DNA of 64,000 nucleotides from Cyanidioschyzon merolae (lineage: Eukaryota): the NCBI GenBank assembly GCA_000091205.1, contig AP006492.2; one strand, written 5' to 3'. Shown one piece after another: positions 2,960-58,892 of the stretch. How positions within the stretch are numbered: position 1 is the first letter of the stretch; every line of letters starts with the position of its first letter. The notes beneath the pieces are model-generated. The model was not told the origin of the DNA and searched no databases. It worked only from the letters and a program-made list of their open reading frames with translations. Position numbers and translations under genes: made by a program.

Positions 2960-5544
2960 ACAAGTGATCTTGGCCCGAAGAAAACTACTACCATACTCGC
3001 AAACGTTTCCGAGTCGGCATCGGGCTGGTCGACAGACGCGCGCCTCAATTCAGCGCGAGCGGGTGCTGCTCCTGCAGTACTGGAGATGTCTCCTGGGGAC
3101 GCTGCACCGCCCGTGTCCCGCGGCAGATTACCACTAAAAGCTGAACTAGCATCTTTGTTACCGCCTTTCGATGTTTTTGGTTGAATTCTACGGCCTCGAC
3201 AATCGAAGAGCATCCATAGGAGTTCAAGGATTCATACGTCATTCGAGGATTCTCGGTCGTACGCTCAGCGTGACTCCTTCGACGCGCTGTCGTTGGCATT
3301 CATGACGTCACTGGAATGAAGCTCATTCGGCTTGTCCGGGAGCAAGCGCCTGTAAAACAACAGCTATCGCGATTCAATGCATATGGACACGTCGCCGCTC
3401 TTCTCCTTTCTTTACGTGCTGTACGCTCGAATCATACATTCCTCCCAGTTTCGATCTTTCCGCTTCAAGGCAATGCGAGGGCGCAGCGATTCACGTCGCT
3501 CAGTGCACGACGGATAGCATGGCGGTGTGGCCCTTTGGCGACTTGTTCACAAGCCCACGCCGAAAGGTCATCGATCTTCTCAGGTCAAATGGTCTACTCG
3601 GTACGAGAGACAAAACCTTACTTTGTTTGTTGCCGTCGAGGATACCGCATTCTACAGCAGCACGAAGCCCAGTTCGGGATGTGTTCTGAGATGCTCCCAT
3701 CCCATCTATTTGCGAGGAAAAGGGTCCTGAACTTGGGCTGTTGCTATCTTCGTTATCGCCTCTGGAGAAGTGTGCGTCAAAGCTGTGCTTGAATGGGCGC
3801 AGACGCATCGAAAAAACTCGAAATGTGCTCCAGCGTCGATTTCTCTTCCGGTTCTTGTTTCATCGTAGACAACATCACGTTCCACAAATTCTCCATCGAA
3901 TAGAACAGCGTGTATATGCGAATGCAGCGGTGCGAGCACTCGACGGATACATCGCGTAATAGAAACACGGAATCCTTGGTTAATGCGCCGGACGCAGAAA
4001 CTAAGCAAGGCATCGTGACGCGCCTTCTGTATCCGTCAAGTTCATATGCCGAGGGATCAAGGCAAGGGATCACGCGTGACAAGACGGCGCTCGGGCCAGG
4101 GATTCGGCGCCAGTGTTGGAAACAAACATGTCCACCGCCAAGTCGCAACACTGGAAAAGGTGCATCGAGGCTGCATCCAAAGAGGATGGAAATGACAATC
4201 GTAGCGTATATTGTAACTTTGGCCTGTGCATGAAATGCGTTGACAGCAGCCGGAAGCACCCTGATCTGGTGTTTCGAGCAACCAACACCATCCCTCAACT
4301 GCCGACCCCGGATCTGGAGCCAGAAGAGAGCCTGTTGGATTTGCAGCCGTATACCAGAGAGAGCAGAAGGAAGCGGTTGCAGAGCAAGCGCGCAGCGACT
4401 GGTTTCGATGACATTGAGAAGAGACCCAAAGCCCAGTATTTACGCCCGAGGCATGGAATCTTTTCCATTTTATTCTACCATTGGTGCAGCTGCAAGCAAA
4501 GGACAATTCGTGTGCGGCACTTTGCTCGACGCTGGCTCCCCTGTACCCATGCGGCTGTCCGGACAAGATCGATCACGACTTGCTCCATCGCGTCCTTGAT
4601 TCCCGAGTCCATGGACGGGGACACAGATCAGCATTTGTTCACCGGCAGGTGTTCTGGTGACTCATTGTACATGCATGCCATTCGACTCTAGTCGCCGCCC
4701 TCCGCTGGACTACCGCACGTCGCTGCTCGTGATGACGCCCCCACCGCTGTCTGTACACACCGAGGCGCTCGGACGGTACTGAACCCCCAGACCGACGGCA
4801 CAGAGGGCATGCGGGGCCTCAGGCGCTACCGCAGCAAAGCGCTCCCTTCCCGTCTGGCGCGATGTTGTCCAGAGCGCTATGAGCATGGACCTCGCCCTGC
4901 AAAACTTTGTCAGCGTTTCATGCAGCGGCGCACGGCAGATTCCCTTGAAAGTCACCGCATCGAACTGTTTGCGTCGGTGAATACCACTATCGGCAGGCAG
5001 CGGTTTCAAGAACGCCACGTGGCTTTGCTTCTGCATGGTTCGCGCACTTTTTCCCGTGTGAAACCATGCCTCATCGCTTGCTGGCTGGGATTCCAGTTGG
5101 CCTCTCCGAATAGCGCAAAATCACCAGCTTACTTCACGAATAGTCGAACAGCTGCGTAGAGCCTTGTGGCTTGCCCCAATATTCGGGAGCTAAACATGAT
5201 CCACACAGCGGAAACGAGTCCTCTTTACACGTAAATAGCAGACAACATGAACGACTCCCACGGTGTTCTGTTCGGCAGCGTCGATGAGCGTGGCGGCTCG
5301 CCAAGTACCTTGGAAGCTGACCACCCACGTTGTACGGCGTAAAAGCGTCCTTTTTGTAGATAGACTACGCACCACTTGGACCTTGACGGTGTGATTCTTA
5401 GGTTGAAGTTTGCACTCGCTTCCAAGACCCGCTAGAAAAGACCCCCTAACTCGCTGTTTCCGAAACGCCGCGAGACCGGGAAAACGTCTCCATATGCGCG
5501 AGCACAAATTCTCGTCCTCGTCATTGTTCAGGGGTTGGTGGTTC

Positions 5545-5835
5545 ATGGTCCTGATTACCTTAGAGTTTGGCGGTGGATTGGATGCAATTACAAGCGCCAA
5601 AGCCAAGACGGTTGCGTGTGATGTTCCGGCAAAGACGGTAGGCGAGTTAATTAGGTGGATTCGACGGCACCAAGTCCGAGAGCGACACGAGTTTTTCGCT
5701 TCGGGCGATGGCGTGCTTCGTCCGGGAGTTTTGGTGCTTGTCAACGAAGTCGACTGGGAGTTAGAGGGTAAAATGGAATACGTTTTACGGGAAGGAGATA
5801 CGATCGCGTTCATTTCGACGCTGCACGGTGGCTGA
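5545..5835 (+). CDS. URM1: Ubiquitin-related modifier 1 (URM1), 96 aa
   Basis: Translation MVLITLEFGGGLDAI...VLVNEVDWELEGK..YVLREGDTIAFISTLHGG matches the URM1 beta-grasp fold and its C-terminal HGG. ATG confirmed at 5545 in frame with ORF 5410..5835. The 5190..5855 minus-strand ORF is the antisense artefact. Confidence 0.8.
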   Translation: MVLITLEFGGGLDAITSAKAKTVACDVPAKTVGELIRWIRRHQVRERHEFFASGDGVLRPGVLVLVNEVDWELEGKMEYVLREGDTIAFISTLHGG

Positions 5836-8800
5836 TGCCCTCCGGGGTGTACCAAGTGTTCGCCCGGCAGGGCAACCGGCCTCGCGTTCGACCCATAGAC
5901 TCACAGGGCGCTCGTCGGCAACGAGCTCCGGCAGAGAGGTTTACGAACGTTGCATCCATAGACGCTCTGGGAACCCTACTGACCCTTTATGAATCGAAGT
6001 AGACTCTTGGGCGTTGCAACGCCGCGCTGGACCCAGAACTTCTGCATCAGGCTGTGGTGCCGTGCTTCGTGCCAGGGGTACCGATGATACCGTCCGAGGC
6101 ACGAAAGCCGAGTGCAAGTATCGCGTATTTAGGGCATTCGCATTCAATGCTCTGTGAACGTACTCAGACTCGTGCAACGTTGCACGGCCGTCCATCGCAA
6201 TGGGAGATGTGTATGCATGTATACGTGTCTATGTGCGCTTCGTTTACAAGCAACTGCACACAAGCCGCCCGCTAGCTGAGCAGGTCGACGCGATCGCTCT
6301 TCGAATCCTGAGTAACTTCATACAATGAAACACGATGATCGTCTACCAAATGCTCGAGAAAACTGTCCCCAGTGTTCGTATAAGGCGGTCCAGTCTTTGC
6401 GTTTTGCTGCAGCGTACCGTAACTGTGCCTTGCCCAAGGCGAGCATCCAACACATCCTCGACTGGCTACTGATTTTTTTCATCGAAAGTCTTGATCATTC
6501 CAGCTCAATTCCCACACTGAGGATGAAGCGATCCGTATGAAATTCCGCTTGACACAGTGCCGCTGGACGCTCCCAAAAGCGCGAGATATGCCCGGATGTT
6601 GATCGAGCCGCTCAAGTATCTGTGCACAAGGCACTGGCGCTTTTTCTTGTTGGTGGAATCACACCATAGCACGCCGCTCCCCGTACATCAATTCATACAT
6701 CGGTCTCTGTTCCACGCTCTGCGTTTCTATCTGTTTCAGCGGACACCTACGCTCGTTGTAGGTCTATGTCGCATTGAAAGCACCGATCGGAATCGTATCG
6801 AATCGTATCCTGCGATCGCTGTATGCTCTCGTCGAAGGATAACGAGCGCAGCCTTGGCGCGCTGCAGCACGTCCAGCGCCATAGGCTCCTATCAAATAAC
6901 ATGCCTTTTAGGCCAGTTCCTTTTCCACCACATGGAGCAAGTTATCGAATTTACGCTTCTTGTCTCTTTCGAAATGAAACCGTTGGTGATCCCAGCACGC
7001 TCTCATGCAGCCCCGCCAAAGATCGTCTGTCTCGGCCATTTCGACGCTCACGGACGGTCTCTTGCGTAGGATCTCTCCCACAAGTCACGATTTCAGGTCT
7101 AGAAAAGTGATGTTACAACGTGCACAGGGTGCGCTCCATGATGCGCTGGAGAATGACCCGTATACGCTTTTGTTTTTTGAGGTTGTTTTGATACCTGTTG
7201 GTACCTGCGCTATGGATTTTTTTCGACCAACAACGTCCCGCGGCTGCACTTCGAGATATTCCACAAACCATGTATGTAAATCTCCGATCCTGTGATCAAG
7301 CTGTTGTGCGTCTTACATTTCGCGCATCCGTTGTGTTGGCGCGGGAAAGCTTCATCGAAATATGGCAGAGGAATTTGGATAGCTGGCAGCCCCGCGGCTA
7401 TAACCCCTACCAACAGTTGCTCGACGATGTGCACCAAGGCGAGGGACGTCAGGCGAGCCTTCCTCAAAGAAGAAGCTACGCGATACCTGTTGGCGTCCTG
7501 CATTTCACTTTTTGTAAGACCTTCCCGTTCATGAGTTTTTGTCGCGAGGCCGTGATAGCGTTTTCATTCTGAACTTTCCCCACCAAGAGCGTTTTCTTCT
7601 GGTCATATCTTGACCTGTTTTCGGAAGAATCGTTTCTTTTATTGGCCTATGCTCTTGATCTTCATCTTTACTTGGTCGGGTGGCATGTATTTAGGCGCCA
7701 TCCTCCACTTCCGATCTTTCCTCGGAACTGAGGCACACTGGGTACATGGTAGCACTGACAAACGCCTTTTGTGCGGTAACGTCTGCGGCATCTTACGCAT
7801 CTTTTCGTCAGATGCTTCGCGAGCATGCCTTCGAGTCAAAGCACGTCTTTTCGCTGGCTCCCGCGCACGGGCAGCGGGGCAACACGGCAGTTCGCGGTTG
7901 GGAAAGTGGTAGAAATCGACCATGAAAAGAACGAATTGCGAAGGAGTCATGAACTCGAATGTCTCTTCCATTGAACCGCGAGTGTAAATACCGCATTCGA
8001 CAATGGAGCGAAGACGCATTCGGCAGGGTCAACCAGGGAGAACAGACTGGCACGAAGCGTAGCTGAACGCCAATTTCAACTGCGTATTCCCTGACAGCTT
8101 TGGTGTCAAGGTAATCGTTGTTTCATTGGAGCAGAAGAACGGAATTCGAGAGGGCAATTTCCCGAAATGCCTCGATGAATGATGCAATGAGGAACGATCT
8201 AGTCCACTACGTGATTTGCAGGCGACCACATTATAGTATTGGTGCTAGGGCTGACGTCGTCGTCAGGCTCGTTTGTCTCTTCTTGACGAACTGCGGTTTC
8301 ACCCTCTTGGAATGCTCATTCGCAGATCAACCATGTGGTCCGGGCCGAGACTTACCGAGTGAGGCGAATACGCTTCCCTCCTGTAACAGGAGTTCACGTT
8401 CCAGTGCGGATTCGGTCGTGTGTTGTTCAACGCGATACGGTGTCCAAGAGAGGTGTGTTTTTCTCTTTGTACGTATGTGTCTTTTCATGACATTTCGTAT
8501 CATGGGCGCGCAAACTTCACATTCTGAGCTTCTCAGGTATTATGTCTTAGTGACAAAACCGCGTGTAAGGTACTGGCGAGGAGACTGTCTTATCGATAGA
8601 GTCTAAGTTCCAATTTGAGTGCACGATGTTCCGAATGACGATTACCATGAAGGGTACTTGATCCACCTTTCGACCGCAGAGTATCTGATATATCGAAGCA
8701 AGGCCGCTTTGTCGCAAGGTAGCAGTAGCGGCATAAACTTTTTCCGCATCCTTGCTCCGATCTACAGGATGCATTCCTTTTACTGCGAATCTGTACGAAG

Positions 8801-9358
8801 AGCGAACGAAAACAAAAAGGGCGCGCAGGTGCGGGTGTTCCCGGATTCACTGTTCTGAGTATATCGAGTCATGCAATACATTGTCGATATCATCTGCTTT
8901 GACAGCGCTTGCTCGGCCGACTGGTATCCGACGTCATCTCAGAGTAGAAACATAGGTCGCAAAGACGCCTGGTACAATACTGGTCGCCCCGGCGGACACG
9001 CATCCATGCAAACCGCGCTTCCGCAGTGTACGGTCAGCAGCAGCAGCAGCAGCACCCAGGCGTCGTCGCTATCACTGCCGCTACTGATCGAGTCGCTACG
9101 GCCGCAGCTGGAGCCATGGCTCCTCCGATAACTGCGCCTGCTTCTCGGAGCAACATGTCAGCGCCTCCAGTCCATAAACAATACCGTGTGACCAGAACAA
9201 CGAGCTACACGATTCAGCGCCTCAGTGAGGGATCAGGACACCCTCGTGAGCGCGTCTTGATACATTGTGGGCCCACGACAGCTGCCAGCGATAGCCGTGG
9301 TGTTTTCCATATTTCTGCACTGGCGTTGACGATGCAGTGCTTCCTTCAGTGTCGCTCA

Positions 9359-15146: not shown

Positions 15147-16019
15147 CTACACGAGAAGTGTCTGCAAACTTGAAGCCCTCGGCAACGATGCCAGGTACTC
15201 TGCTTCGACAGCGTGCAAATCACCTGGCATGACCAGAGAATGGAGCGGTGGACCAAAATCTTTCCCGGAAAATTCCTTCAATGTACCGACCGCCATCAGC
15301 TCATCGACTTGTCCAACACGAGCGAGCCCAATACAAAGCGTATCCGAGTCATAGGCAAATGCTCCGGCTCCGGTTTCGTCCGTCTCGCGACCAAGCAGTT
15401 GGGCTCTCTCTCTCCACAGGGTAAGTAGCTGCTGTGCAGCATCAGCAATCGTCATGAAGCGAGGTGGTTCGAAAACCTTGACTCCTCGAGCCAAACTCTC
15501 CTCACTCGGTTCATGTACGCGAATATCCAGTAGGAAGAGGGTATGGAGGCCGCGGCGGCGATTCGCCTCGAGTTTCTCGTACCAGGAGGTCGGTCGCCAA
15601 GCGTTTGTCCAGAACACGAGGGAAATTGTCTCGCCAAATCGATAAAGCTGGAGTCCACACACTCCCACTGCGGTTAAGATGCTCGCGTTGAAGATGAAGC
15701 GGCACTCAACTCCGAGTTGCCGGGCTCGCAACACCAGGTCGTGATGCGTCGTTGCGCCGAAAACGTCACCAACTACGAGAAAGGCGACGTTTCCAGTCCT
15801 CGCTGGCTCCAGCAAACTCGATACATTTTCTTCAATCATTTCACGGTCAGCGATGGTGACTTTCTTTCCGTAGAGGTCTTCGAGCTGACCCAAGTCCGTT
15901 CGCAGGAGCGACGTGTAACCATCGAGAAAAACCCGATCACACGAGCGAACTGTTTCCAAGCCCCGCAGAGTTATGTCTCGCTCGTCTCCCAAACCCAAAC
16001 CTATGAAGTATAAGGGCAT
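15147..16019 (-). CDS. DPH5: Diphthine synthase (diphthamide biosynthesis methyltransferase)
   Basis: MPLYFIGLGLGDERDITLRGLE..VFLDGYTSLL...GNVAFLVVGDVFGATTHHDLVLRARQLGV matches DPH5 over its whole length. ATG at 16017-16019. Confidence 0.9.
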   Translation of the reverse strand: MPLYFIGLGLGDERDITLRGLETVRSCDRVFLDGYTSLLRTDLGQLEDLYGKKVTIADREMIEENVSSLLEPARTGNVAFLVVGDVFGATTHHDLVLRARQLGVECRFIFNASILTAVGVCGLQLYRFGETISLVFWTNAWRPTSWYEKLEANRRRGLHTLFLLDIRVHEPSEESLARGVKVFEPPRFMTIADAAQQLLTLWRERAQLLGRETDETGAGAFAYDSDTLCIGLARVGQVDELMAVGTLKEFSGKDFGPPLHSLVMPGDLHAVEAEYLASLPRASSLQTLLV

Positions 16020-16204
16020 AACGGAGCCGAGGGTCCCAGACGCAGCCGGGTGGTTGATAAGCGACCGCAGCCTGCGGTTAGTGAGGCGCCAGCCAAACGC
16101 GTGGCAAACGAACCATGTTGACGCTCATGCTCGCTCTGTCCCTGTACCTCGATTTTCTACGGAGCTTTTCTTGGATGCAGAGCTTTGGCATTCGAAGTGC
16201 AGCT

Positions 16205-16660
16205 GTAAGAGCTCATGGATTCATGAGTAGTTTTTGGAGTTTCATTCGTGTTGTCGAAGTGGGTTGTTCGCCACTTTGCCACTGGAATTCGTGAAAGTAC
16301 CGAAATCATGCTGATTCACGACCATCTCGCAGAAGAGTTCCTAAACTCAACGATAGCATGATCCGATGTGTACATGAGAAAGCATCCACTCTTCTAATTT
16401 ACACACGAGTAGCATGCTCAAAATAGGCATTCTTCAAGTTTTCTTTCTGTCTGATTCAAGGCATGCGCGCCGCAGCGTTGGCGCGAAGCAAATCTCGACG
16501 TTGTCCCTTGAGGAATACCTGGCAAGCTCATGCTGCAAGTTCACAGAGCTTCTTTTGTCAAAGTCATCCGCTGCGTTCGAAATACGAATCTACCGTCCTG
16601 TTCGGTAATCGATGAAACTGTATTTGCTAGGATCATGACACCATGCACGAGGCTTGCTCC
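16205..16660. repeat. Dispersed repeat family, copy A (about 450 bp, diverged)
   Basis: Shares with copy B, in the same order and spacing, the blocks GaGCTCAtGGATTCaTGaGtAG, CTTCTAATT..ACGAGTAGCATGC..AAAT..CAT.CTTC..GTTTTC and ATGAAAC..TA..AG.A.CATGA..C..CACG.G. Confidence 0.5.
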
Positions 16661-17732
16661 CGGAAGCTCGGCTCTCTTCTGTTATGTTTGGATGGGAAAA
16701 CGGTTTCGGACTCGGACTTGAGTCATCACAGTGATCGTTTCCATTTGGACCGAGCTTCACTGCTTTGCACGAAGATTGCGAAGACAGATCGAAATCTCCT
16801 GACCTGATCTGGAGCCTGGATTTTCCTTCCAAGACTTGTTTCATGAAAACACCATCATCCATATCGTTCGACTGCTAGCAACGGAAATGGAGGCAAAGTA
16901 GAGACCGCGCTACCCAAATCCGAAGATGAGAGAGAAAGAGGACACGAAAGCAGTCACAGGAAAAGCTTTCGCAGAGTCGTCTAGAATGACATTGGGAAGA
17001 GACGCAAACTGTCATGTTTTATGCCCGAACTTGCTGTAAGTGAGCATTCCAGGTCGTGCTGGCACGTAGGTGTGGCGAACGAGCCGTTTCCGGAGTGTTT
17101 GTTTATCGTTGGAGACAGGCCGCGCCTTGTCGTCAACATGATTGTGTGCTGTCCGCAGCACGTGCGGGTTCCGGACTCGTTGCAACCTGCGAGTACGCTC
17201 GGATCTGACAGCTGCTTCTGGATAATGCACAGGCACTGAACGCTGGATCTTTTGTAGGTGAAAAGCTAACGGAAACAGGAAACAGGAGGTGCTGCGGTGC
17301 CCGTCTGGTACCGACGGCCTTGCACGTCGTCACCACAGGAATACCGGCCAGCGACGGTACTCTGAGAAGCGCGCGATCAATTGGAACTTACGCAATTCGT
17401 CTTCATTCGTGCAAGAGACAGTTTAACAGAGCGATCTTGGGACGCGCGCAAGCTTTTAGACTTTGGGGATGACGAGCTCCACTTCGTCTACTGGACCCAG
17501 AGTAGCGAGCGTGCAGGCAACTTGGCGACGGGCTCGAGTGTTCCTGTTCTGCGTTCCACCGCGTTTCGATTGTGTTTACTCCGCGGGATGCTCGCAAAAG
17601 AATACGACTACTCTTCGCGCGTCGGCTTTTAATCCGAGAACCCTCCGTAATCAGCACCCTAACCGGGTTCTTCGCTACAAGCGCCGCCCACAAAGTTGCG
17701 GCTATGTCTGGCACTCTGCTTCTGTCACCAAT

Positions 17733-18494
17733 ATGGCTGCATGGTGTAGGCACTGTCACCAGCATACTTCTCAGTGTAGACTTGATCGTTCCGAAGAGGG
17801 TGCAACGGATCGATCCAGGTCTCCGGTCACGGAATGGCGCGTCATGTATGCTCGTTGGACGCAGGGATCTTCCTGGATGCCCCAACTTCACATAATGCTA
17901 CCGTTGCTGTTGGCGCTGTTCATGATAGACCTCCAGTTTATATTTCTGGCAGATGTGTCCTACGCACTCGAGCTGCCACCAGGATCCATGAGCGTCACAC
18001 GAGAGGAATCTGAAGAAAGCGGCACGAAGCAAACACAAACGCAACGTGTACGTAGCATCTTGGCGACGCTACAGCAAACCAAGTCCTGCATTCTCTGCGA
18101 CCTCAGCAGCGTTGATTTGAGCACAGCGGCTTTGGCTGGCGCGGACCTTCACGGTGCCGCGTTATCTCATGCGAACCTCTTCCAAGTCCAACTCTCAGGG
18201 GCGAACCTTCGCGGCGCCAAGTTCGATGCCTCGATCCTCGATGAGGCAGCCCTGGATGGTGCGGACCTCTCAGGCGCCGACCTGCGCCAGGCACTTGTTC
18301 GACGCACGCTTCTACTTGGGGCGCGTCTCGACGCAAACATTTCCATCGACGGGGCTGATTTTTCTGGAGCTCTCATTGATAGAACCAATCAGCGTCTGCT
18401 CTGCGAACTTGCACAAGGCGTGAATAGTCGCACCGGTGTAGCTACGGCGACGAGCCTTGCATGTCCGGAGCCAAAAACGAACCAGTCCCCATGA
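17733..18494 (+). CDS. Pentapeptide-repeat protein with bipartite (thylakoid-lumen-like) presequence
   Basis: Tandem A(D/N)LxG-type pentapeptide repeats (DLSSVDLSTAALAGADLHGAALSHANLFQVQLSGANLRGAKFDASILDEAALDGADLSGADL...). They are preceded by a hydrophilic Ser/Arg-rich stretch, a hydrophobic h-region (MPQLHIMLPLLLALFMIDLQFIFLA) and a VSYA cleavage-like site. Candidate ATGs at 17733, 17844 and 17877; the upstream part of track ORF 17463.. is probably not coding. Confidence 0.6.
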   Translation: MAAWCRHCHQHTSQCRLDRSEEGATDRSRSPVTEWRVMYARWTQGSSWMPQLHIMLPLLLALFMIDLQFIFLADVSYALELPPGSMSVTREESEESGTKQTQTQRVRSILATLQQTKSCILCDLSSVDLSTAALAGADLHGAALSHANLFQVQLSGANLRGAKFDASILDEAALDGADLSGADLRQALVRRTLLLGARLDANISIDGADFSGALIDRTNQRLLCELAQGVNSRTGVATATSLACPEPKTNQSP

Positions 18495-18900
18495 CCACAG
18501 ACTTTGTAGAGTTTCAAGCGCTCGCTCCGGGAAATTGCAAGGAGCGCGCTTCTTGTGTTTTTGCAGTTGCCCGTACCGCGCTTTAGCACGAACCCCGCTA
18601 GTCAGTAAATACGCAAGCAGCGGCACTGGAGACAGCGGTTGCACAGCTTGCCCAGTGCGTCCGCAACGTGCAGCGCTCCTGCGACACGCGGCTCTCCCTA
18701 TCACTTCATCTTACCCTCCTTAAAAACCACGTGCCGGCCAACGCGCGGATCGTACTTGATGACTGATAACTTGTAGGGAACGTTTCGCGGATTTTTTCGG
18801 GTAACATAAAAGTAACCGGTACCCGCCGCAGATACCAACTTGATCAGCACAGACTTGCCCTTGGCACCAGCCATGGCGGCTCTACGACACTTGCGCTCCT

Positions 18901-18933
<33 letters not shown>

Positions 18934-18934
18934 G
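18901..18934. repeat. (CAG)n microsatellite, about 10 units
   Basis: gcagcagcagcagcagcagcagcagcagaagcag, intergenic. Confidence 0.9.
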
Positions 18935-19330
18935 TCAAGCTACAAACCTGCGACAAGACGTTTGCGGGCAGAAGACCAGGTCGCTCAACACGCGCAGCGC
19001 GCTTTGCTCTCGTAGCACGAAGCGTCCGCACGTCCAACAGAGCCACTCGCAACGCCCAGTCGGTACCAGCAACCACGGATATACGTTCCAGCCGCTCTCC
19101 AGAGCGTTTCACGTCACCTGCGATGCAGTACGCCCTTGCCCCAGAGCATCGACGCTTCGTTGATCCAACGAATTTTCTGCGTGCGTGCGAGCCAGCAAGC
19201 GGCGCCTTCACAACATCGCCCCGTGCCTGCGCGCTCGTGCTGCGCAGGTATCCGCAGCGAATCTCAGGCCGCCGAATCGATCGACCTGATGGCGATGCAG
19301 GTACCGCCGCCGCCGCTGCGCTACAGATAC

Positions 19331-19465
19331 AGGCGCGCACACACACACGCTGAGACGTAGGCGCGCGCACACACACACACACGCTGAGACGTAGGCGCGC
19401 GCACACACACACACACGCTGAGACGTAGGCGCGCACACACACACACGCTGAGACGTAGGCGCGCG
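19331..19465. repeat. Minisatellite, about 4.3 tandem copies of a 30-32 bp unit (AGGCGCGC(GC)ACACACAC(AC)GCTGAGACGT)
   Basis: Read directly from the sequence. Lies about 190 bp upstream of the TauE-like gene ATG. Confidence 0.9.
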
Positions 19466-19654
19466 CGTGCCTATTTTGCGACACATGCCATGGCTGTGGC
19501 ACGCGTAGCGGCTGCGCATGGCTGCCCTGGCTGCACACAGCGCTGCACCCGGCCTGGCAACGAATCGCAACAGGATCGGATTGGGTCTGTGCGCGCTATC
19601 ATTGATGTGCAGCGTGCGGTTACGTCTGCAAGCTTGCGTAGCTGTTTCGGGAAC

Positions 19655-22069
19655 ATGACGCAAGCAGGGACTTTAACTCGAAACAAACCAAAGGTTCGAC
19701 GTTGGCTACCTGTTACTGTTTGCCTCTTGCTTGTGCTGCTGCTGCTGCTGGGCGCAACACAACCAGCCGCCGCGGTGAACGCGTGCGACTACTGTGACGC
19801 GGTGGGTAAGGCGTGTAACGCCACGCTGGGCAAGTGCTACCGGTGTACGAGCTCCAAGGACTGTCCATCACGCAAAATATGTAACGTCGATATCGGTCAG
19901 TGTATAGTGGGAGGTGTTTTTTCAAACTTTGACTGGCAGGAGGGCGTTCTCATCTTGCTGGTATTTCTGGCGGCAGGGGTGTCGAACGCTGGGGGCGTAG
20001 GTGGCGGCCTCCTCTTCGTGCCGTTGCTGGTGCTGCTAGCCTCGTTTCCTATACCGCAGGCGAGTGCGAACTCACAGTCTCTGATCCTGGGTGCGTCTAT
20101 TGCGAACTCTGTGTACAACTTCCGGAAGCGGCACGTCATCCGCGACGCACCGCGCATCGACTGGAACTTGGTGATCAGCACGATGCCTTTCTTTCTCTGC
20201 GGCACAACGCCGGGATATTTTCTGAATATTTCGCTTCCCGGCTATTTCACGGGTTTCGTTTTGGCTGCGATGCTGGGAGCGCTCACCATCCAGAGCTTTC
20301 TCTCGGGTACGCGCATGACTCGCCGCCAATGGAGAATGCGACGCGAGTTTTTGCGCCAGGAGGCAGCAGGCAGCGCTCCGCTTGACGGCCCTGCAGCATC
20401 CAAACCGACTGCACCGACTGCGAGCGACGGTACCTCCGTCGTGCAACCCGGCATGCAACCAACGTCTACTGCGGTCGGCGAAGAGCGCCTGGATATCGAC
20501 TCGATCACTTCGCGTTTGCCGGGTCACCAGGATGGGTCTGCCCGCGACGGGGCATCGACAGCGTCGCTTGCTGGAGGAACACAACCGGGGAATGTGGAAG
20601 CTGGCGCTGTGAACATCCAGCACGACGTTGCTGGTTCTGGAAGCAGCAGCGGCCAGCAGCACGACCCGCAACTGGGCGAGCCTAGTCATCGGGCAGCGTC
20701 GCAAACGACGTTGACCGAGTCGACGGGAGCGAACGTCGTTCTGGCTTCATCTCAAGGCGATGTGCATCCGTCTGTCTTAGCATCGAATGCAACAGTAGCA
20801 GCAGCAGCAGAAGCACGTGGACCTGTGCATGCGCCGGAAGAGTTGCTACCTGCAGCGGGCGCTCTTCCTGAACAGAGACGCGACTTGGATCCATTGCCGA
20901 GATCTGTGCTTCAAGAGCGACTTGGACACGCGGCAGTGGACGGCCACCTGACGCACCGGAGTGACCGCAATGAACGCACGGCCATTTGGGTGGGCATGAA
21001 ACGCTCGGTCTCCTGCCAAGAGGAGGAGCTCGTCGGACGTCAGCACCGCAGCCGTGACGACTCCACGACATCCTGTTTACCTATGCGCGTGCGTGGTCGA
21101 CACTCGTGTTCGGGCGTGCTGCGTACCGCCTCACTCTACGAAGACCTGGCAGGGCTGTATACAGTCCATGTTGATGAGCCTTCGCCTCGCTCCAGATCCA
21201 AACTCGCAAGCGCCGAGCGTTCCGGCAGTTTCGTGGACCAACAGGCCGGCTCTTTCGAGTCAACTTCCAAACTGTATCGAGTTTGGCGTTTCGTGGACCC
21301 GGTTCTCGCGAGTCGAAACCTGGAAGAAATGCTTGCGGCAGAGCGTCCATGGTTTCCCTGGCGTCACATTCTGTTCGTTGTCATCCTCATCGCCATTCTC
21401 TTTGCAGGGCAGTTTCTCTCAGGGGCACCCTATGCCCGGTCACCGGTCGGTGTCCCGCTGTGCGGTGCTGTGTACTGGGTCATTTTCATGCTCCAAGAGC
21501 TGTCTCTGTTTGTCATTGGGCTGCTTACTGTATTCCGCAACATTCGGTTGCGACGGCTTCGCGCTGCCTACGGATACCCCTGGTTCGAGCATGACGGACT
21601 CACGGATATGCGCTGGGACGGTATGAACCTCTACGTCTATCCGGCATTTGTGCTGGTGATCGGCGCCATTGACTCGTGGACGGGTCTGAGCAGCAGCGCC
21701 CTCATCATCCCTTACCTCTACTTGATCGCGCGCACTGACCTCGTTACCGTCCAGTCGTCGATGGCTATTGTGAATCTGGTCGCGAGTCTGGCTGCCGCCA
21801 TGGTCTTCCTTGTTGACGGCCGCTTGAACATAAGCTACTCTTTGTTCTACGGGCTCTGGGCAATGTTGGGCAGTTACAGCGGTGTGTTCTTCGTTTACTA
21901 TCTCGTGGATCGCTTTCAGATCCGAGCATTCATCATTCTGGCTATTTCCATTGCTTTTTTTGCGGCATTTGCGATCGTACTATACGAGGCGGTCCATAAT
22001 GTGCTCGCAGCACGGGCAGCAAACGCCGGCTGGAAAATGGTGAACATCTGTGTGCCGACGTACCTGTAG
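19655..22069 (+). CDS. TauE/SafE (TSUP, DUF81) family membrane transporter-like protein with N-terminal Cys-rich domain and long disordered loop
   Basis: Signal-peptide-like N-terminus (ATG at 19655). Cys-rich module CDYCDAVGKACNATLGKCYRCTSSKDCPSRKICNVDIGQC. TauE signature AGVSNAGGVGGGLLFVPLL. A roughly 330 aa low-complexity hydrophilic insert is followed by a second block of TM helices through to the C-terminus. Confidence 0.65.
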   Translation: MTQAGTLTRNKPKVRRWLPVTVCLLLVLLLLLGATQPAAAVNACDYCDAVGKACNATLGKCYRCTSSKDCPSRKICNVDIGQCIVGGVFSNFDWQEGVLILLVFLAAGVSNAGGVGGGLLFVPLLVLLASFPIPQASANSQSLILGASIANSVYNFRKRHVIRDAPRIDWNLVISTMPFFLCGTTPGYFLNISLPGYFTGFVLAAMLGALTIQSFLSGTRMTRRQWRMRREFLRQEAAGSAPLDGPAASKPTAPTASDGTSVVQPGMQPTSTAVGEERLDIDSITSRLPGHQDGSARDGASTASLAGGTQPGNVEAGAVNIQHDVAGSGSSSGQQHDPQLGEPSHRAASQTTLTESTGANVVLASSQGDVHPSVLASNATVAAAAEARGPVHAPEELLPAAGALPEQRRDLDPLPRSVLQERLGHAAVDGHLTHRSDRNERTAIWVGMKRSVSCQEEELVGRQHRSRDDSTTSCLPMRVRGRHSCSGVLRTASLYEDLAGLYTVHVDEPSPRSRSKLASAERSGSFVDQQAGSFESTSKLYRVWRFVDPVLASRNLEEMLAAERPWFPWRHILFVVILIAILFAGQFLSGAPYARSPVGVPLCGAVYWVIFMLQELSLFVIGLLTVFRNIRLRRLRAAYGYPWFEHDGLTDMRWDGMNLYVYPAFVLVIGAIDSWTGLSSSALIIPYLYLIARTDLVTVQSSMAIVNLVASLAAAMVFLVDGRLNISYSLFYGLWAMLGSYSGVFFVYYLVDRFQIRAFIILAISIAFFAAFAIVLYEAVHNVLAARAANAGWKMVNICVPTYL

Positions 22070-22569
22070 TATTTCATGAACGAACTAGTCGAAACATGAC
22101 CATGGCAGGTGCGCGCGTCGAGCGCCATTCAAGCAGAGAGCGCTTCGCTGGTGCAGGCGTCGCCCGAGGTCGCCAGCGAGCCAGTGATGCATCTGAACGA
22201 GCGGCAAACTGGCGTGCTTGTCAAGTCGAGCACAACGCTGCCTCTGTCGCATGCACCAGCGGCTGCGTCACATGCATCGTGCGTAGCGGTCTGCAGCTTT
22301 CTCTTCCAAGAAGCTGGATGCGAGTCGAGGCACTCCGGAATAGATGCATCCCCAAGCCGCGCTCGTGACGCGCTGACAATCATGATTTCAGTGCAGTCCG
22401 AGTACAACAGTGCGCGCTCGAGTTGCACTCGGTGCGCTCGACATGGATCCAGTGTCGTCTGCGGATGCTACACCAGTGTCAGGTTGAAATGGAGCGCTGA
22501 ACCACGAGAAGTAATCTAGCATTTCGATAGTCCTCACTCAAATTTGAGATCTGGAGCATCGGCATTCGG

Positions 22570-23060
22570 AGTGCAACAATAAGGGCTCACGGATTCGTGC
22601 GCAGTATCGGGATAGCCGGCTGTTGGTTTTTCGGACTGTCTTCTTCGACGCTTTAAAGCTGAAAGTCGTAGTGTCTGCGGAATCAACGTCATTCGCGATA
22701 TGATCTTGGACAAGGCTTCGTAATATCACTGATATTATGATCCAGTGCGTCCATACAAGAATCTATTCTTCTAATTCCATTACGAGTAGCATGCATAAAT
22801 GACACATGCTTCCAGGTTTTCGACGACCATTCCATTTCATGGGCAATGCATGAGCGCTGCGATTCGTGTCCCAGTACTGATGATGACGACAAGAACTCGG
22901 TTTCTTCCATTGAAGATTTGATAAGACGTTCATGCCGAAAGTGCACTGAACTTGTTACGTGAAAGAATCGATTCCGCTCGACTGGCGTATCCTGCACGGT
23001 TTGTCGTCAGTTATGAAACAATAGTCGAAAGTACCATGATGCATCTCACGGGACGTGATC
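22570..23060. repeat. Dispersed repeat family, copy B
   Basis: GgGCTCAcGGATTCgTGcGcAG ... TCTTCTAATTccattACGAGTAGCATGCatAAAT...CTTCcaGGTTTTC ... ATGAAACaaTAgtcgaaAGtAcCATGAtgCatcTCACGgGac, collinear with copy A. Confidence 0.5.
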
Positions 23061-24367
23061 TCAGAGGCAACCGTCTCCGCTGTTTGCATGGAAAGAGGGC
23101 GTGGACGCGGACTTTGGTTATCGCATCGATACCCTTCAGTGAAGCGTGTGTCAATGCATCGCACGAAGGAAGCGCAGTCAAATCGTAAGCTCTCGACTTT
23201 TTCTCCATCCTGGATTTTTTTGCTTCTAGTGCCAGTCTCATCCTAAACGAACGATGTGTGCCGCAAATGCCCTATAGAATGGAGAAGTATGCACTCGTGC
23301 GTACGGCGGACAGCGCACTCCCCAGGCGGTATCGCTCAGCAGTAGTCCGTCATCGTAGGGTGCGGCACCGAGCCCGGATACGGAGAAGTCATCAAGAACG
23401 AGCCCTTTGTATCTCTCAGCGGCAAATCTTGTGAGCGATGAAGAAAAGCCTCACGCGCCACAGTGCGGCGCTCGGACGAGGATATGTGGCGGATGCGTCT
23501 AGAAAACACTGACCATCGTCATGTTTTTCTGCTGCTGCAATCGGCGCTCCGAGGCTGCATCAATGCAATATGACGTGGCAAGCGAAGCGTGAGTCGCAAC
23601 GATATGCTTTGCATGAAATGAGTCAACATTTGCCTCACGCGGTGAAATTGGAATTGTCTTGTTCTCGTCAACGTCTTGCAACTGCTTATAACGTAGCGGG
23701 AGGAGAAACAAAACTCGCTGTATCGAGAGCGGAGCACAAGAGAGCGAGAACGAAAGCAAACATCCGCCAAGACTAGTATTGAATGATAGCGGTTGTCGAC
23801 CCAAACTTTGGTATCTAGTTCGGAATTAGCTGGGCTGGACCTGTTCCCTTCAAGTCTGGCATAAAGCCGTAACCGGATACGCTGTGCGAGCGTTCTTGCG
23901 CCTGCCATGGACAACCTCGAAGGGCGTCCACATCACCACAATCCTCCGAATAAACGAAGCATGTCTTGTTGGCGCACAGTGCGAAACCTTCATGATATTT
24001 TGCTCCGCAGCGAATTTGACCCAGCTGAAGTGCATGGATAGCCCTAGAGGCGTCGGCAACAAGATGCACGTCTGCGGTTGGTTCGCTGCTCCAAGTCCAG
24101 CAGCGTCTGGGCACGTTCTTTTGCAGTTGCGTATTCTGCTCGAGCGCCCGACACTCATGCAGCGCTCGGGGTTATTGTCGATGCTTCGTGACCAACGGCG
24201 CTTTCCTTACCAGACTGGCGCATCCGCTGCGGTATGATATCCAGGTAAATGGCAGCGACATTCGAGTAGCAACGCACGATTTGCAAAGCCGCTTTCGGAA
24301 TCATCTCGATTATATTCGATAATGGAACACCATTGTCGATCATTGATCGACCGGGGAAATGGTAAGC

Positions 24368-24392: not shown

Positions 24393-27300
24393 TGGTGCGG
24401 GGCTTTAGCGTTGCTCCTTTGCTGAGCATACCATGCCAATGTTCCGCTCCAGACGAGAATTCAGTGTCACTTCTCCTGGCCTCTGATTCGTTTTCTTGCA
24501 AGTCTGTAGCGTTCCAGTGCGATGCCTCTAGTGAGTCACCTACGATGTCCTGGAACATTCGCGCACCTCAGAGCAGTTGGACGCGGCGGAAGCGCGACAA
24601 GCGGTAGCATAGTATTCGGGGCGTTCAAGCCTCGGTGCAGATTGTGCTAGCGCAAAGTTTTCCCGGGAAATAACACACGAGAGCGAGCATCATACCCTGG
24701 ATGACCTTGTCATGTGATGTTCTGTCAGTGAATTGTCGAACATGTCGCGCATTCGCCTCTGTTTCAAATGTTGCTTGTCTACCGATTTCAGAGAGCACCT
24801 GTGCCCATGTTGCGTGTTTGTCGTCCGGAATGCATCGATGCGAGAACTGGACCATCGAGGCTGGCGCTGGTTGCGCGGTCTCCTCGACACAGAGGGTGTG
24901 TAGTCATCGCGCGCTACAGCACATCCAGCCCCGCAGGATACCACCAAATGATGCGACTTGTCGGTGAGATCCTTTTCCAACTCATTAAAATCGTCGGTGG
25001 ATGCACGCTTCTTGTCTCCGTGCAACCGCAACTTGTGCTACTCTGGCGCGGTCTCAGGTATTTCAGCCAAACATCGTTGATACGAGTTATTTGGACGGTC
25101 CTGTAAGCTCCCTGAATGAAGCGTAGAGAGCGACGCCATCCGTGCTGGAAACGGTGCTGAGAGCTTCGAGGTGCCGCCTGATACCTGTATTCCAGTTATT
25201 GGCACGCCGTTTGGTGCTCACGATTCCTGACTTGCGATAATACCCATTCCTGAAGAAGCTGAGAAGTTTCATCTGATTTCCGTTCAGGTCTCCGGCGCCG
25301 TGCTTTTGATTCAGAGTTATGGCGACGGACAAGACGTCCTTCGACAAGGGATCCACATTCATCACGGGGTACTCCTGCTCAGTTACCTTGAAATGTTAGA
25401 CATGCGTCCGTCGGTCGGCTCTGGTCTAGGTATCACGGAATGCATGCAGATTGATATTCCGTCCGACTCCATCGTACCTGTAAACTTCTTTGCTTTTCTC
25501 ACTATGAAGAAGATTCCTTGAAGGAGTTCCTCTAATGCCGTTGGTGAAGACGTTCGAGTGCTTCATACTTGTGTGCAGAGACCAGTGGTAGCCCACTGAG
25601 GAGGCCAATCAGCACAGGACAACATTGTCTGCGGAGTTGTACTGGGTCTCGATGTGCCGTATGGGAAATACATCGAATAGATCCCCGAGGAAGTTGGGCG
25701 CTCGAATCCAGGAACCAAGTCTGCTTTGCTTAGGAGCGCTCAGTGCAGGGAATCTCAGAAGCGCAGTATTCGAAAAAGGCATGTATCCCGTTTCAAACAT
25801 GCTTCGGATACGAGTTCCGTGTACTTGATTCCGAGAGCAACGCCATGAGCTTGGACGATCGGAAGCGAACTCGCTTCCACTGCGACATCTGTTCCGTACT
25901 CGCGAGCTCCTCGATCGTCTCCGCAGTCACCAGCTCGTCGTTGACCGTCATCGATACTCCGCGAATGCCGTTTATCAGTCCCAACTTAACTGGGACAGTA
26001 CGTTGAGCGCGCAACGCCTCCAGTGTACGCTGCACGAACCAATCGACGGTGACCAGCATATGGTTTATGAGGCTGGTATGATGCTTTTGGGCACCTGCTC
26101 TGTAGACACTCCGGTTACCGACGTGTCGCGCCAATGCCTCCAGGTATTCTGGGAAGTGTGTATGTGTGCGACGCTCTAATCCGACGATCATGCGGTATGT
26201 CGTCTTCTGTCTGGAGCATCAGCTGTGTTGTCGCATGCTGGTTTGGTCTAGGTATGCGAGAGGAAGGTCGGTAGCCAGCTGTTCCGACACCGGAACTCCT
26301 ACAAGCAACTGCTTGATGCGGTGCGTCCTCGCGAGCGGAGCCAGGCACGACATTCTCGAGTATAGAGCGACGTGATCCCCACTGGCGTCTTGCATTGCAC
26401 TTTTTGAGAAATTATTCCTGGTGAGGAGTTTTGTTAGGCAGGCCTCGACAGTGATTTCAGAGTACTGTTTCCGCGTAAACCGTTCCTCCTGTCGATCTTT
26501 GCTTGGTGTCGTTTCGCGAGGATTTTTCTCTTCTTTGTTCAGGAGTTTCCTCGCCTTCTCATGACTTGGCGGGCTAGCATGGATACTAACGCACTACTCC
26601 GTATCCTTTATTCCGCAGTATTCAGATCCAATACGTAGACGTGGACACTGAAACTCGCCTGTTCTTCGTTTGTTTCTCCCATTCCTCAACTACCTCTTCG
26701 TCACCTGGTCCGGGTCGACCACGTCCGTGGACCGAAGCGCGCCGTTCCGCTTTCTCCCGCGTACGAGCAGCGAACCAGCACTGCAATGCACGGCAGGTGA
26801 ATGTGTAGAACCAGTCGACGCAGAGGGGTTCGTCGAAAAACCGTATCACAGATACGAATGACTCATCCATAGAAGCATGAGCTTGAATATGGCATTCGAA
26901 AAGGAGAACACGCCTCGGACTCGATTGAACTAGGGAGAAGATGCTAGCACGAAGAAGTGCTCAACACGAATCGCTGATGCGAACCGCTTCAGCGCATTTG
27001 AGTGATCGGAGTCCATGGTATCTACGAACAAGACACAAGAATCTGGCGAGCACAAGTCACAAAGCGCGTCAACGAAGAATGCGGTGTTGAACAATTCAGC
27101 CCTTGCAACAATTCGTAGGCGAACACACCATAAAATCGTTGTTTGGGCTGGTGTTGTCGTCACGCTCGCTTGCCTCTGCTTGACGAACAGCGGTCTTTCC
27201 CGTGTTAGGTACCGGTATTCAAGGCTAGCATTTCCCTAGGCAAGTCTCACCGAAAATGAAGAGCTCCCATACCTCCTGTTGAGAGCATTCGCATTTCAGT

Positions 27301-27850
27301 GCGAAATCCATTCTGTGACGTTCAGCAAGTGACGATCTCCCGTAGACGCGCACTTTTGTCTTTGTCCATTTGCGACTCTTCATCACCGTTCGAATCAGTG
27401 GTGCAGAGCTTTCACATCCTGTGTATTCTCTAATCGTTTTTCTTAGACAGCAAATGGATTGGAATGCACTGACGAAGAGACAATCGTGTAGATCGTATTC
27501 GACAAGCTGCGTTTCGGGTGCGCTCTGTCTACACTAAGCACTACGACAAGGGCAGTTCATTCACTGGCTGACCGTAGAAAGCGTGGCTTGAACAACGAAG
27601 GTCGTTGTTCTCGCAAGCTAATCATGGCGGCATCAACTCCTTCCGCGAACTTTCTCCAATCCACAGAACACTAGACTTTAATTGAATACCGGGGAGAAAA
27701 CCAGACAAGAACAAAACCAGCATGCTGGTTCACGTCTTCCAGCGTGCACTCCTCTGAGCATAACATGCGAACCTCCATACTCGCCATGCGCCGTGATACC
27801 ACGTCAGCCTTGCATCTGCGAATCGCTGGCGGCGGAAATAGTTTCCGCGG

Positions 27851-29338: not shown

Positions 29339-30759
29339 GGGAAGCACTACACGGGAAACTGCTGGGAGCACAGTTTGGTACTGAAGAAAAACACCTCGAC
29401 GCTGGAGCAGTGGCGGAGAGCGGAGTGGTGTTGTCGGCGCCGTTGCACCGAGCGCGTTCACCCGATAACAAATCGCTTGCGGGTGCTTTACAGGGCTGTT
29501 GTCTGCTGGGGTGCGTATGACGCTGGCGTGGGTGCGGATCGTACGGAATTGAGTGCCTGAGGAAGTAGCAACTCGATGATGGATTCTTTCGACTTTCCCA
29601 TTAATCTTTGGAAGGAGGCGACGCTTTGCGTATCATCGAAAGTTTGGCTTCTTAGCAGAAATTCTCGTTAAGCGGATGAGTCTGCCGGTTTCGTGCCTCA
29701 TGCTCCCTGCTCCAGTGGCGGTTGCTATGACGAGACACGAGCAGTTTTTCTACAAAGCAGTCTTACTCTGGGACTAGGAGCGGTCAAGTTGCATCCAGAA
29801 GTCGTCCTGGTCGCGGTGGTCTGCTGGTGTATCGCTTCGCGTAGTCGCAGGCAGGGGGTGTATCTGCGCAGTCTCCGGGCTTCCAGCTTGATAACGAATC
29901 CCGAGCTTGTGCCGGGTGAACCACGTGTCGAGCCGACGCCTTTCGGGGTATGATAATGCCTTGCTGTCTATATGCTATGTCCGCATCGGCGTTATAGGTG
30001 CTTTTACGGGGCTTATGGCTGGTTCGGTGCACGGTGGATCATAGGCAATGATTCGTACATGTGAAAGGAGGTATCGGGAGCAGAGCCTGACCCTAGCATC
30101 AAGCATGATGGACGTTTTTGCGATGACGGATATCCACCGCGCAATCCTGGATCCCTGCTTCATGTAATCCTCCAGTCGAACAAGAACGAGGATCGCATGT
30201 TTGCATTTTTTGACGTCAGAAGGATCAATGATCCTAGACCGCAAAGAAATTGGGCGAAAGCATTCGTCTCTAGGATCAGGTGCACACACGTCTCAGATGA
30301 GAGACAAACTAGAGGTTTTCTGGGGGATTTTCGCGCGCGCTGGTCAGGCGTGCGCATCATGGGATGATAGGGTGTAAGAAAAACCATGTTTGATCCATTT
30401 TTTCTCATTTGAATGCCGGGAGCCTGCATCATGGATCAGGCGCATACAAGCACTCGAGACAGGGAGCGCATACGGCAACGCGTCTCTCTCGGTTACATCG
30501 ATTTGTCCGGTATCCGCAGCGGTGCACTGCAGCACACCAATGGGGGTGTCGAATGCGCATATCCCGCCATTCGCCCTGATTCCCGTCATGAAAGTGCACA
30601 GCTCGTACTCAATCGCTCCAGGTGCTTTGCAGCTGCTTCTTCATAGGAGCGGTGCGTGGTTCGTGGAACGCGCGCAACCTGCGCGTTCCGACGCTCACTG
30701 CACGTTCAAAACCTGGTGAACGCTGCGCAGAGAGGCTCGCGAATGCCGGTCGTGTTCAT

Positions 30760-43977: not shown

Positions 43978-44520
43978 CTCGTCCTACAGTTGTCTCTCTT
44001 GCCGCCTTCGATGTTGGGCCTCCCTCTTCGGTCCTTCTTCTCTTCCTTTTCTTCTGGACTAGGCAATGTTTTTTGTTTTTTCTGGCAGCCGGCGACCATG
44101 GGCCTGCAGGATCGTCGACTTGCTTTTTCATAGCAAGTCCACGATTTTTTTCGTTTTTTCGAGAAAGAACGCCCTTTGAAGCCTTCTGTTATGTATTGCG
44201 AAAAAACACTTGACAAGACTTGTTCGAAGTTTGAAACACAAATGAACTGAAAACTGTACTTGGATATGAAGTCAACGGAAATACATCTTTTACCTTAGGG
44301 CTACAAGCTAGAGATCAAGATCGCGTTTCCCTTCACCGGCGACATGCGCATAGCGTCAGTTGACTGCCTGATCTCCCAGGTGCGCTCACCGAGCGCGATT
44401 ATTCTTTCAGATGACAAAACGTTGACATTGACCATGGATCCCAGAATTCGGAATGGATAATGGCTTTCGGGAAAGCGTCCATGATGAAGCAACTACATCC
44501 AAGTTCCATTACCCATACTT
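41839..44520 (-). mobile_element. Probable transposon relic carrying the Fanzor/TnpB-like gene (approximate boundaries from the GC drop)
   Basis: Lower-GC block containing the Fanzor remnants plus about 500 bp of AT-richer sequence upstream of its ATG. Ends and TIRs not resolved by eye. Confidence 0.35.
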
Positions 44521-58459: not shown

Positions 58460-58892
58460 TGCCTGTATCTTAGACGCATGCCTTGGTGGTGGCGATTGGG
58501 ATGCTCAGAGCTATACGGGGTGCTTATTCGACGGACACTGTCGATCCATTTGGAAGAAATCCATTTGTTCGATGTACGCTTAAGAGCATCCGATCGGACG
58601 CTGAGCGTAAATTCGTACGAGGATCGTTTCCATGTTGCACAGGCTTCTCGCTGGAAGCATCATGTATCGCCACAGTGATGTAGCGCTTTTGAAGGAGCAC
58701 AGATTTCCTCTCTGATAATCAGCAGCGCTTGCCCGTCATCGTAGCGACTCGAAATGGATTCTGTGACCTTATCCGATACAAAGAAGCATTGCCACCGAAT
58801 AGCGGTACATGCGTTGTCCGTGCATGACAATCTTGTTCGATGAAATTGGAGCGGATTGAATCAGCGAACACAACAGTATACGCTAGAGTTCG

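Follow-up and report, generated by a model that had tools for sequence, protein, structure and literature searches.

Cyanidioschyzon merolae is a model "minimal" eukaryote. Its genome has been described as containing only 0.7% transposable elements plus one class of 3.2-kb repeats, namely 26 retrotransposons, eight class II elements resembling bacterial transposases, and a 3.2-kb repeat present 253 times, whose truncated open reading frame (ORF) is weakly similar to the white spot syndrome virus (WSSV) protein WSV486 (Nozaki et al. 2007, PMC1955436). Bao & Jurka (2013, Mobile DNA 4:12, PMC3627910) found Fanzor1 in WSSV and described ~150 copies of a ~3-kb Fanzor1 element, CMe-1A, in C. merolae, which shows neither inverted repeats nor target duplications. 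CMe-1A (TE-N2_CMe) and the WSV486-like repeat are very probably the same thing. The same authors also described mariner-type elements that carry Fanzor1 and are flanked by TA duplications, as well as derivatives in which one of the two genes is missing but the inverted repeats remain. A published survey of miniature transposable elements with inverted repeats (MITEs) reports none in C. merolae (PMC3964958), and no report of a Tc1/mariner- or IS630-type family in this alga was found in the literature searched. Here we analyse a family of diverged repeats in a 64,000-nt stretch of chromosome 10 of C. merolae 10D (contig AP006492.2; "the window"). The repeats very probably belong to a single old family of non-autonomous DNA transposons, ~1.38 kb long and decaying at the neutral rate, in which the beginning of a transposase gene is joined to the end of a Fanzor1 gene.

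Like PGv-1, PUl-1 and PUl-4, the mariner/Tc1-type transposons in which Bao & Jurka (2013) described a Fanzor1 gene, the family combines a Tc1/mariner-superfamily DDE transposase with Fanzor1, inverted repeats and TA. In contrast to these elements it is an internal-deletion fusion in which transposase and Fanzor1 are both truncated, it is of far greater age (identity between copies 65% or less), and its host is a red alga. With CMe-1A it shares the genome, the derivation from Fanzor1, the decayed state, the interspersed location in intergenic DNA and the RuvC-III motif NRDFNAAINI. However, CMe-1A is ~3 kb long, encodes a complete Fanzor1 but nothing of a transposase, and is of lesser age (~80% identity to its own consensus), whereas the present family measures 1.38 kb and has 28-bp inverted repeats and a DDE remnant. 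It also keeps a C4 zinc ribbon, which the CMe-1A proteins appear to lack. In our comparisons CMe-1A was represented by the copy at 42-44 kb of the window and by metagenome paralogs. IS630 and Tc1/mariner elements (Pfam DDE_3, HTH_Tnp_IS630) resemble the family in their N-terminal helix-turn-helix (HTH), the xIDETGF and xxDNAxxHK motifs, the preference for TA (putative in the family) and the short inverted repeats; in the family, however, the region of the third catalytic residue (YSPxxNPIE) is deleted, so that it cannot be autonomous. The family may be identical with, or related to, the eight class II loci of the genome report, and may possibly be present in Repbase.

The window is compact, with ~55% G+C and long intron-less ORFs on both strands, whose products include BAM80303 (CMJ180C), BAM80304 (diphthine synthase) and BAM80312 (tryptophan synthase beta). 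The same region is found in hot-spring metagenome contigs at ~99.2% identity. An earlier note on this stretch had described a repeat of about 450 bp, with copies at 16.2 kb (copy A), 22.6 kb (copy B) and 58.9 kb and possibly another near 62550-62700, and had suggested an old non-autonomous element (MITE or SINE-like) or a shared regulatory module. A sensitive blastn search of the window with a single query (16000-17200) returned three further matches on the plus strand, at 22554-23218 (61.4% identity over 679 nt, E 9e-45), 62516-63167 (61.3% over 684 nt) and 3176-3877 (58.5% over 718 nt). An all-against-all search of the window confirmed the three matches and lengthened them to ~1.2 kb (E 5e-43 for the pair A/B). 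The homology of A and B is thereby upheld. It is by no means confined to the short CTTCTAATT..ACGAGTAGCATGC core, outside which the note had asked for identity above random expectation: left of this core the two copies are 65.9% identical (z=25.8 against shuffles) and right of it 59.7% (z=14.6). Since these values lie well above those of the shuffles, the repeat is real.

Its extent and its copy list had to be revised (Table 1). From inverted repeat to inverted repeat the unit measures ~1.38 kb and not ~450 bp; the coordinates first proposed span only the 5' 40% of the element. In total the window holds four copies, all on the plus strand, and end fragments at 58.8-59.1 kb. Copies A and B of the original list stand, the tentative copy near 62550-62700 is a real one (copy C), and copy D had been missed. 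The "shorter core copy" at 58893-58950 does not stand, for it has no match to the A/B core above chance. Local alignments of 58700-58950 with the consensus and with each copy remained inside the shuffle range for four of five targets; for the fifth, copy B, 4 of 300 shuffles were as good, but the alignment pairs 58718-58744 with the KPVIVGYG region and not with the core. Two 3'-end fragments lie head-to-head at this place, and the minus-strand one overlaps the interval in question. The plus-strand one comprises the end of the Fanzor-derived ORF, the 3' untranslated stretch and some of the right inverted repeat, and blastn pairs its positions 58957-59131 with 4310-4476 of copy D. In copy A, nhmmer aligns profile positions 57-817 with 16092-16846 (E 3e-140) and 1234-1444 with 16852-17076 (E 4e-18), consensus positions 818-1233 having been lost in an internal deletion. 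All copies lie in sequence of lower GC content without long ORFs, as had been noted (0.476-0.517 versus 0.548 for the window).

A consensus was built from 21 distinct copies, four from the window and 17 from hot-spring metagenomes that contain Cyanidiales, after removal of strain duplicates. The additional copies came from contigs coding for paralogs of a neighbouring repeat ORF and from one scan of the metagenome contigs with the consensus translation. All 21 copies match the same profile span in nhmmer searches, i.e. the family has sharp, common boundaries. At its 5' end the consensus element reads TACACCCGTGTCAGATTAAAATGGAACA and at its 3' end, in reverse complement, TACACCCATGTCAGAATAAAATGGAACA. 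These ends form 28-bp terminal inverted repeats with 26 of 28 positions matching (score 46 versus 17.6+-2.3 for shuffles, none of 2000 shuffles being as good), and they are placed exactly where the homology among the copies starts and stops. Outside both ends the consensus dinucleotide is TA. The distance between the TA dinucleotides is 1378 bp, ~90% of which is recognisable ORF remnant. Several metagenome copies have a TA at one end or at both, and in others it is mutated; in copy B it lies directly outside both ends (22469-22470 and 23870-23871). This outermost TA is what a TA target duplication would leave behind.

The 5' part of the consensus derives from a transposase gene. Apart from a single stop, frame +0 can be read through from the ATG to just past FIMDNIAFHK, which holds the second catalytic aspartate. 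Its translation matches Pfam DDE_3 with 36.7 bits (cut-off 28.6 bits) and is 39% identical over 271 aa (E 2e-58) to an intact 317-aa transposase from the metagenome contig L025. The latter possesses the full catalytic set, i.e. D in IVAIDETGF, D in LMDNIAFHK and E in YSPWFDPIE. In the family the homology stops right after the second D and the third catalytic residue is absent; where L025 has the region with the E, the family has sequence of Fanzor origin that reads in a different frame. Given this incomplete D-D-E/D triad, the family is a non-autonomous member of the Tc1/mariner-IS630 superfamily. The conserved blocks from which the repeat was first recognised are remnants of the HTH region and of the first catalytic-aspartate motif: ATCGATGAAAC codes for I-D-E-T, the block ATGAAAC..CATGA..CACG corresponds to the codons of IDET...MI..TG in the first aspartate motif, and the other blocks fall into the HTH region. 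An assignment of LFVAIDETAF to the first RuvC motif of a small TnpB was wrong, as the matches to Pfam and to L025 identify it as the first aspartate motif of a DDE transposase.

The 3' part derives from Fanzor1. Consensus frame +2 is open from ILYRMEQRALA to a stop ~50 nt before the right inverted repeat and contains VIVGYGTGRGNG and WEHLTTVKCHRCEG...LCMKC as well as RNRDLNAAINI. Both the zinc ribbon and the RD motif are thus present (LTTVKCHRCEG...LCMKC...RNRDLNAAINI; Bao & Jurka motif [TS][TS]-x-x-C4). The frame matches PF07282 (Cas12f1-like TNB), which stands for the zinc-ribbon/TNB domain in TnpB, Fanzor and Cas12f proteins, with 26.7-29.1 bits (cut-off 26.3 bits). It shares 55% identity with P0121-P0123, which are intact Fanzor-like proteins, and 42% (E 8e-29) with residues 544-721 of the Fanzor1 ORF of L025. 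Matches to intact Fanzor1 proteins were also obtained for single copies by tblastn, with P0122 at 3852-4061 of copy D (frame +3, E 1e-3) and with P0123 at 63216-63512 of copy C (frame +3, E 3e-4). The first RuvC aspartate, expected in a full-length protein 125-275 residues upstream of the zinc ribbon, is gone, the region of the GLDPGRVN motif being deleted. The family is the remnant of a Fanzor1 gene and not itself such a gene. The L025 type of Fanzor1 is in turn homologous to the presumed CMe-1A family (hhalign 95.7%, E 9e-9), and direct sequence searches of the PDB with the consensus, the CMe-1A profile and the L025 Fanzor returned nothing.

Where the two frames overlap, the transposase frame scores z 9.7 and the other frame z 1.6-2.3. 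As only the transposase frame is significant there, the junction lies immediately after the second catalytic aspartate motif, with a frame offset of one base. Fanzor homology upstream of the junction in frame +2 had been considered as well and was rejected as not significant.

The deletion becomes apparent from the comparison with L025:2218-5395, a contig region from an unrelated metagenome (Ga0306899) with an intact transposase plus Fanzor1 composite. Immediately behind its transposase ORF (2218-3171) comes a Fanzor1 ORF that has 717 aa or more and runs off the end of the contig. L025 shows the parent-type architecture of the family. Relative to it ~1.95 kb are missing, comprising the last ~90 transposase codons, the spacer and the first 543 Fanzor1 codons. 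A nearly identical chimeric layout is seen in P0125 (L014:516-1865, run SRR33769809), an intact, in-frame ORF of 449 aa in which an HTH and DDE transposase, cut after the second D, is fused to a Fanzor1 C-terminus. P0125 keeps ~26 more Fanzor residues than the C. merolae family and may represent an independent deletion or a selected chimera; no convincing inverted repeats were found around it on L014. As a side observation, at L015:1478-7224 the genes next to P0122, which is an intact Fanzor1-like gene, have RNA_ligase, 2H-SAK and Peptidase_S74 domains. These surroundings look like those of a virus, not of an alga, and fit the idea that viruses spread Fanzor genes.

All copies are heavily decayed. 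Distinct copies reach at most 65% identity to one another, those of the window ~55-60%, and stops and frameshifts interrupt each copy in the window. On the plus strand the longest open stretches span 76-172 codons (76 in copy A, 87 in copy B), while ~420 would be required for the full product. Translated comparisons of the copies with one another gave equally strong matches in all six frames, and the conservation of alignment columns showed no pattern with a period of three; single copies thus give no coding signal. Coding on the minus strand, suggested by similar ORF fragments and by a 230-codon open frame in an 8-copy consensus, was rejected because both strands are poor in stops and all significant protein homology is on the plus strand. 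Between 10D and the metagenome strains L001 and L002 the family copies diverge by 0.72% and 0.51%, respectively, compared with 0.96% and 0.51% at 4-fold degenerate sites, 0.70% and 0.88% in other intergenic DNA and ~0.3% at codon positions 1-2. Within these small numbers the copies show no sign of constraint.

Table 1. Copies and fragments of the transposon family in the window, with internal landmarks
Feature	Position	Strand	Evidence
Copy D, full length, 1382 bp	3105-4486	+	blastn, nhmmer
Copy D, remnant start codon	~3186	+	hmmalign
Copy D, DDE aspartate motifs (first; second)	~3632; ~3862	+	hmmalign
Copy D, transposase/Fanzor junction	~3889	+	hmmalign
Copy D, zinc-ribbon remnants	~4143; ~4227	+	hmmalign
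Copy D, RD motif	~4260	+	hmmalign
Copy D, end of right inverted repeat (left inverted repeat with small insertion)	4486	+	
Copy A, 977 bp	16096-17072	+	nhmmer, alignment
Copy A, transposase-derived part	16175 to ~16846	+	
Copy A, 3' tail and right inverted repeat	16852-17072	+	
Copy B, full length, 1399 bp	22471-23869	+	nhmmer E 8e-304
Copy B, left inverted repeat; right inverted repeat	22471-22496; 23842-23869	+	ends read from sequence
Copy B, transposase/Fanzor junction	~23268	+	hmmalign
Copy C, full length, 1335 bp	62443-63777	+	blastn 61% over 684 nt to A; nhmmer E 3e-275
Copy C, TA	62441-62442	+	
Copy C, transposase/Fanzor junction	~63196	+	
3'-end fragment, consensus 1249-1430	58944-59133	+	nhmmer E 4e-32
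Second 3'-end fragment, inverted, consensus 1334-1444	58822-58937	-	nhmmer E 1e-12, weaker evidence

The following origin very probably accounts for the family. It corresponds to a composite transposon with a transposase gene and a Fanzor1 gene that lost ~1.95 kb from its middle. On the plus strand the master copy consisted of TA, a 28-bp inverted repeat, a short leader and a reading frame that coded for the first ~235 residues of a DDE transposase of the Tc1/mariner-IS630 type (HTH, first D in VAIDETAF, second D in FIMDNIAFHK). Directly behind it, with a shift of one base, came the last ~180 residues of a Fanzor1 nuclease (eukaryotic, TnpB-like and of the RuvC type), with a QRALA..GYG motif, a WEHLTT-CxxC...CxxC zinc ribbon and NRDxNAAINI, and finally a short trailer, the other inverted repeat and TA. 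With the third transposase catalytic residue and the first RuvC aspartate of Fanzor both gone, this master copy must have been non-autonomous. It would have moved by cut-and-paste only, served in trans by the transposase of full-length relatives that recognise the same inverted repeats. Amplification presumably happened in one old burst, and the family would have been inert since. The homology, inverted repeats, deletion architecture, decay and absence of constraint are direct results, whereas the mobilisation in trans, the date of the burst and the inertness of today are inferred from them. The suggestion of an old non-autonomous element was hence right in substance, given the inverted repeats and TA, the lack of any intact copy and the lack of a complete encoded transposase. 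A SINE-like nature finds no support: no tRNA-like or Rfam match was obtained in the window, and the ends are inverted repeats instead of a poly-A or pol III architecture. The family resembles MITEs in being a non-autonomous, internally deleted DNA transposon with inverted repeats, TA flanks and many copies. MITEs, however, are usually shorter than 0.8 kb, while here 1.38 kb of nearly entirely recognisable coding remnant are retained, so the term does not apply in its usual sense.

Several points weigh against this origin. In single copies the inverted repeats are too decayed to beat shuffles and become significant in the consensus only; in the 8-copy consensus they were merely marginal (115 of 2000 shuffles as good). 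The TA target duplication would follow from the TA conserved at the consensus ends and in some copies. C. merolae itself yielded no full-length partner that shares these inverted repeats, and the intact composite L025 stems from another metagenome and has only ~40% protein identity to the family. The one-base offset at the junction depends on a consensus of 21 very diverged copies. Finally, in view of P0125, there is a small chance that the fusion might be a selected protein and not a deletion accident.

A different mode of spread can also be envisaged. The guide (omega) RNAs of TnpB and Fanzor are normally encoded in the 3' part that the family retains, and the deletion derivative keeps just this portion, from the final third of the Fanzor gene through the trailer to the right end. 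The 3' region of the consensus folds slightly, though not significantly, better than shuffles (z ~-1.9). The family could thus have spread as a trans-acting donor of guide RNA, or "homing" Fanzor1 passenger, instead of a plain parasite of a transposase, and P0125 could be a working half-DDE/half-RuvC hybrid protein with an RNase-H fold. Taken jointly, these two proposals are improbable.

The repeat could alternatively be no separate family at all, just a module of the described 3.2-kb WSV486-like repeat, i.e. of the Fanzor1 element CMe-1A. At two loci an old Fanzor1 relic indeed lies behind a family copy in tail-to-tail arrangement (D 3105-4486 and 6390-8870; B 22471-23869 and 24400-27770), and both families have a Fanzor1-type C-terminus with NRDFNAAINI. 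Moreover, the repeat class of Nozaki et al. (2007, PMC1955436) is loosely defined by a weak BLASTX match to WSV486, so that some copies of the present family may have been counted there. Against this idea, the family has separate ends with inverted repeats of its own, and CMe-1A has been described without any (PMC3627910). CMe-1A-type sequence is absent near copies A and C and near most metagenome loci, and CMe-1A conversely occurs without the family at 41959-44131 of the window and in the metagenome contig L007. The similarity at the DNA level is limited to ~30 nt at the codons of NRDFNAAINI, and the Fanzor tail of the family aligns only weakly to the CMe-1A profile. We consider this explanation quite improbable. 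That the repeat might be the 3' non-coding end, or omega-RNA region, of the adjacent minus-strand Fanzor relic was rejected, as the two families occur independently of each other.

Could the copies instead be a selected, functional non-coding module, either a shared regulatory element, as the earlier note had also proposed, or a family of structured RNA genes? The number of indels is low for a divergence of 40%, there are islands of higher conservation, and the 3' region shows the slight folding tendency mentioned above. This tendency is not significant, however, and the islands coincide with ancestral protein motifs (HTH, IDET, MDN..HK). Furthermore, strains differ as much in the copies as at 4-fold sites and in other intergenic DNA, i.e. 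the divergence is neutral, and no Rfam family matches in the window. The copies, which differ from one another by ~40%, are located both upstream and downstream of neighbouring genes and have no consistent position or orientation relative to them. A regulatory or RNA function is accordingly very improbable.

Just as improbable is a live, fast-evolving gene family for a domesticated chimeric transposase-Fanzor protein: the intact P0125 of the same layout in another organism and the long sense-strand open stretches of the consensus would be compatible with it, but the window copies are broken into open stretches far too short for the product, conservation has no codon periodicity, even the consensus has to change frame at the junction, and both catalytic sites are incomplete.

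The window contains further Fanzor1-related sequences. On the minus strand, 41959-44131 is one copy of a multi-copy Fanzor1 family that is very probably CMe-1A, with ORFs split into 42171-42983 (270 aa), 43249-43602, 43624-43977 and 43790-44131. This copy has 71-76% aa identity to more than 280 paralog-like proteins in hot-spring metagenomes. In Pfam the presumed CMe-1A family is tagged only as DUF8286 (PF26935), yet it has the GADPGNTN and NRDFNAAINI motifs; searches of Pfam and NCBIfam with the 270-aa ORF of the window gave no match. Fragments of a CMe-1A-type C-terminus are located at 53989-54858, where tblastn with P0034 matches 54506-54784 (+), blastn pairs 41960-42301 with 54858-54513 (-), and nhmmer reports a further fragment at 54333-53989 (-). 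The two older Fanzor1-type relics downstream of copies D and B, which read in minus-strand sense, are collinear with each other (60% identity over 1776 nt) and have 31-39% aa identity to CMe-1A proteins. Their pairing with D and B could be due to an ancient segmental duplication or to coincidence. At just one other locus (L045) are the two families adjacent, in a different arrangement. Between copy D and its relic lies a Urm1-like gene (5545-5835, +; Pfam Urm1 on the orthologous metagenome gene), and the corresponding spacer at the paralogous B locus measures only ~0.5 kb.

Two other repeats were observed. An inverted pair of ~235 nt at 29934-30165 and 44425-44658 (60% identity, E 2e-9) matches neither family profile. 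Imperfect tandem GT/GC-rich repeats (translated VCVCVRAYVSACVCV...) at ~19310-19470 lie upstream of, and overlap, the start of a TauE-family ORF (19490-22069).

Overall, the earlier interpretation is partly supported: the repeats are to be seen as an old non-autonomous transposon and not as a SINE, a typical MITE or a regulatory module. We regard the copies as inert relics that make up much of the low-GC "gene-free islands" of the window. No new mechanism is revealed. The family is an ordinary kind of genomic fossil, and it explains sequence that gene annotation had left blank. At least part of the gene-free, lower-GC intergenic DNA of C. merolae belongs to a second, older and precisely classifiable family, whose consensus can be used for masking and dating. 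Its density amounts to four copies in the 64-kb window, plus four more in ~66 kb of other contigs (L007, L009-L012), all in regions picked because repeats were present. In the improbable case that this density held genome-wide, the unlisted family would constitute several percent of a genome advertised as containing 0.7% transposons. The family also links the Fanzor1 genes of red algae to a concrete type of mobilising transposase.

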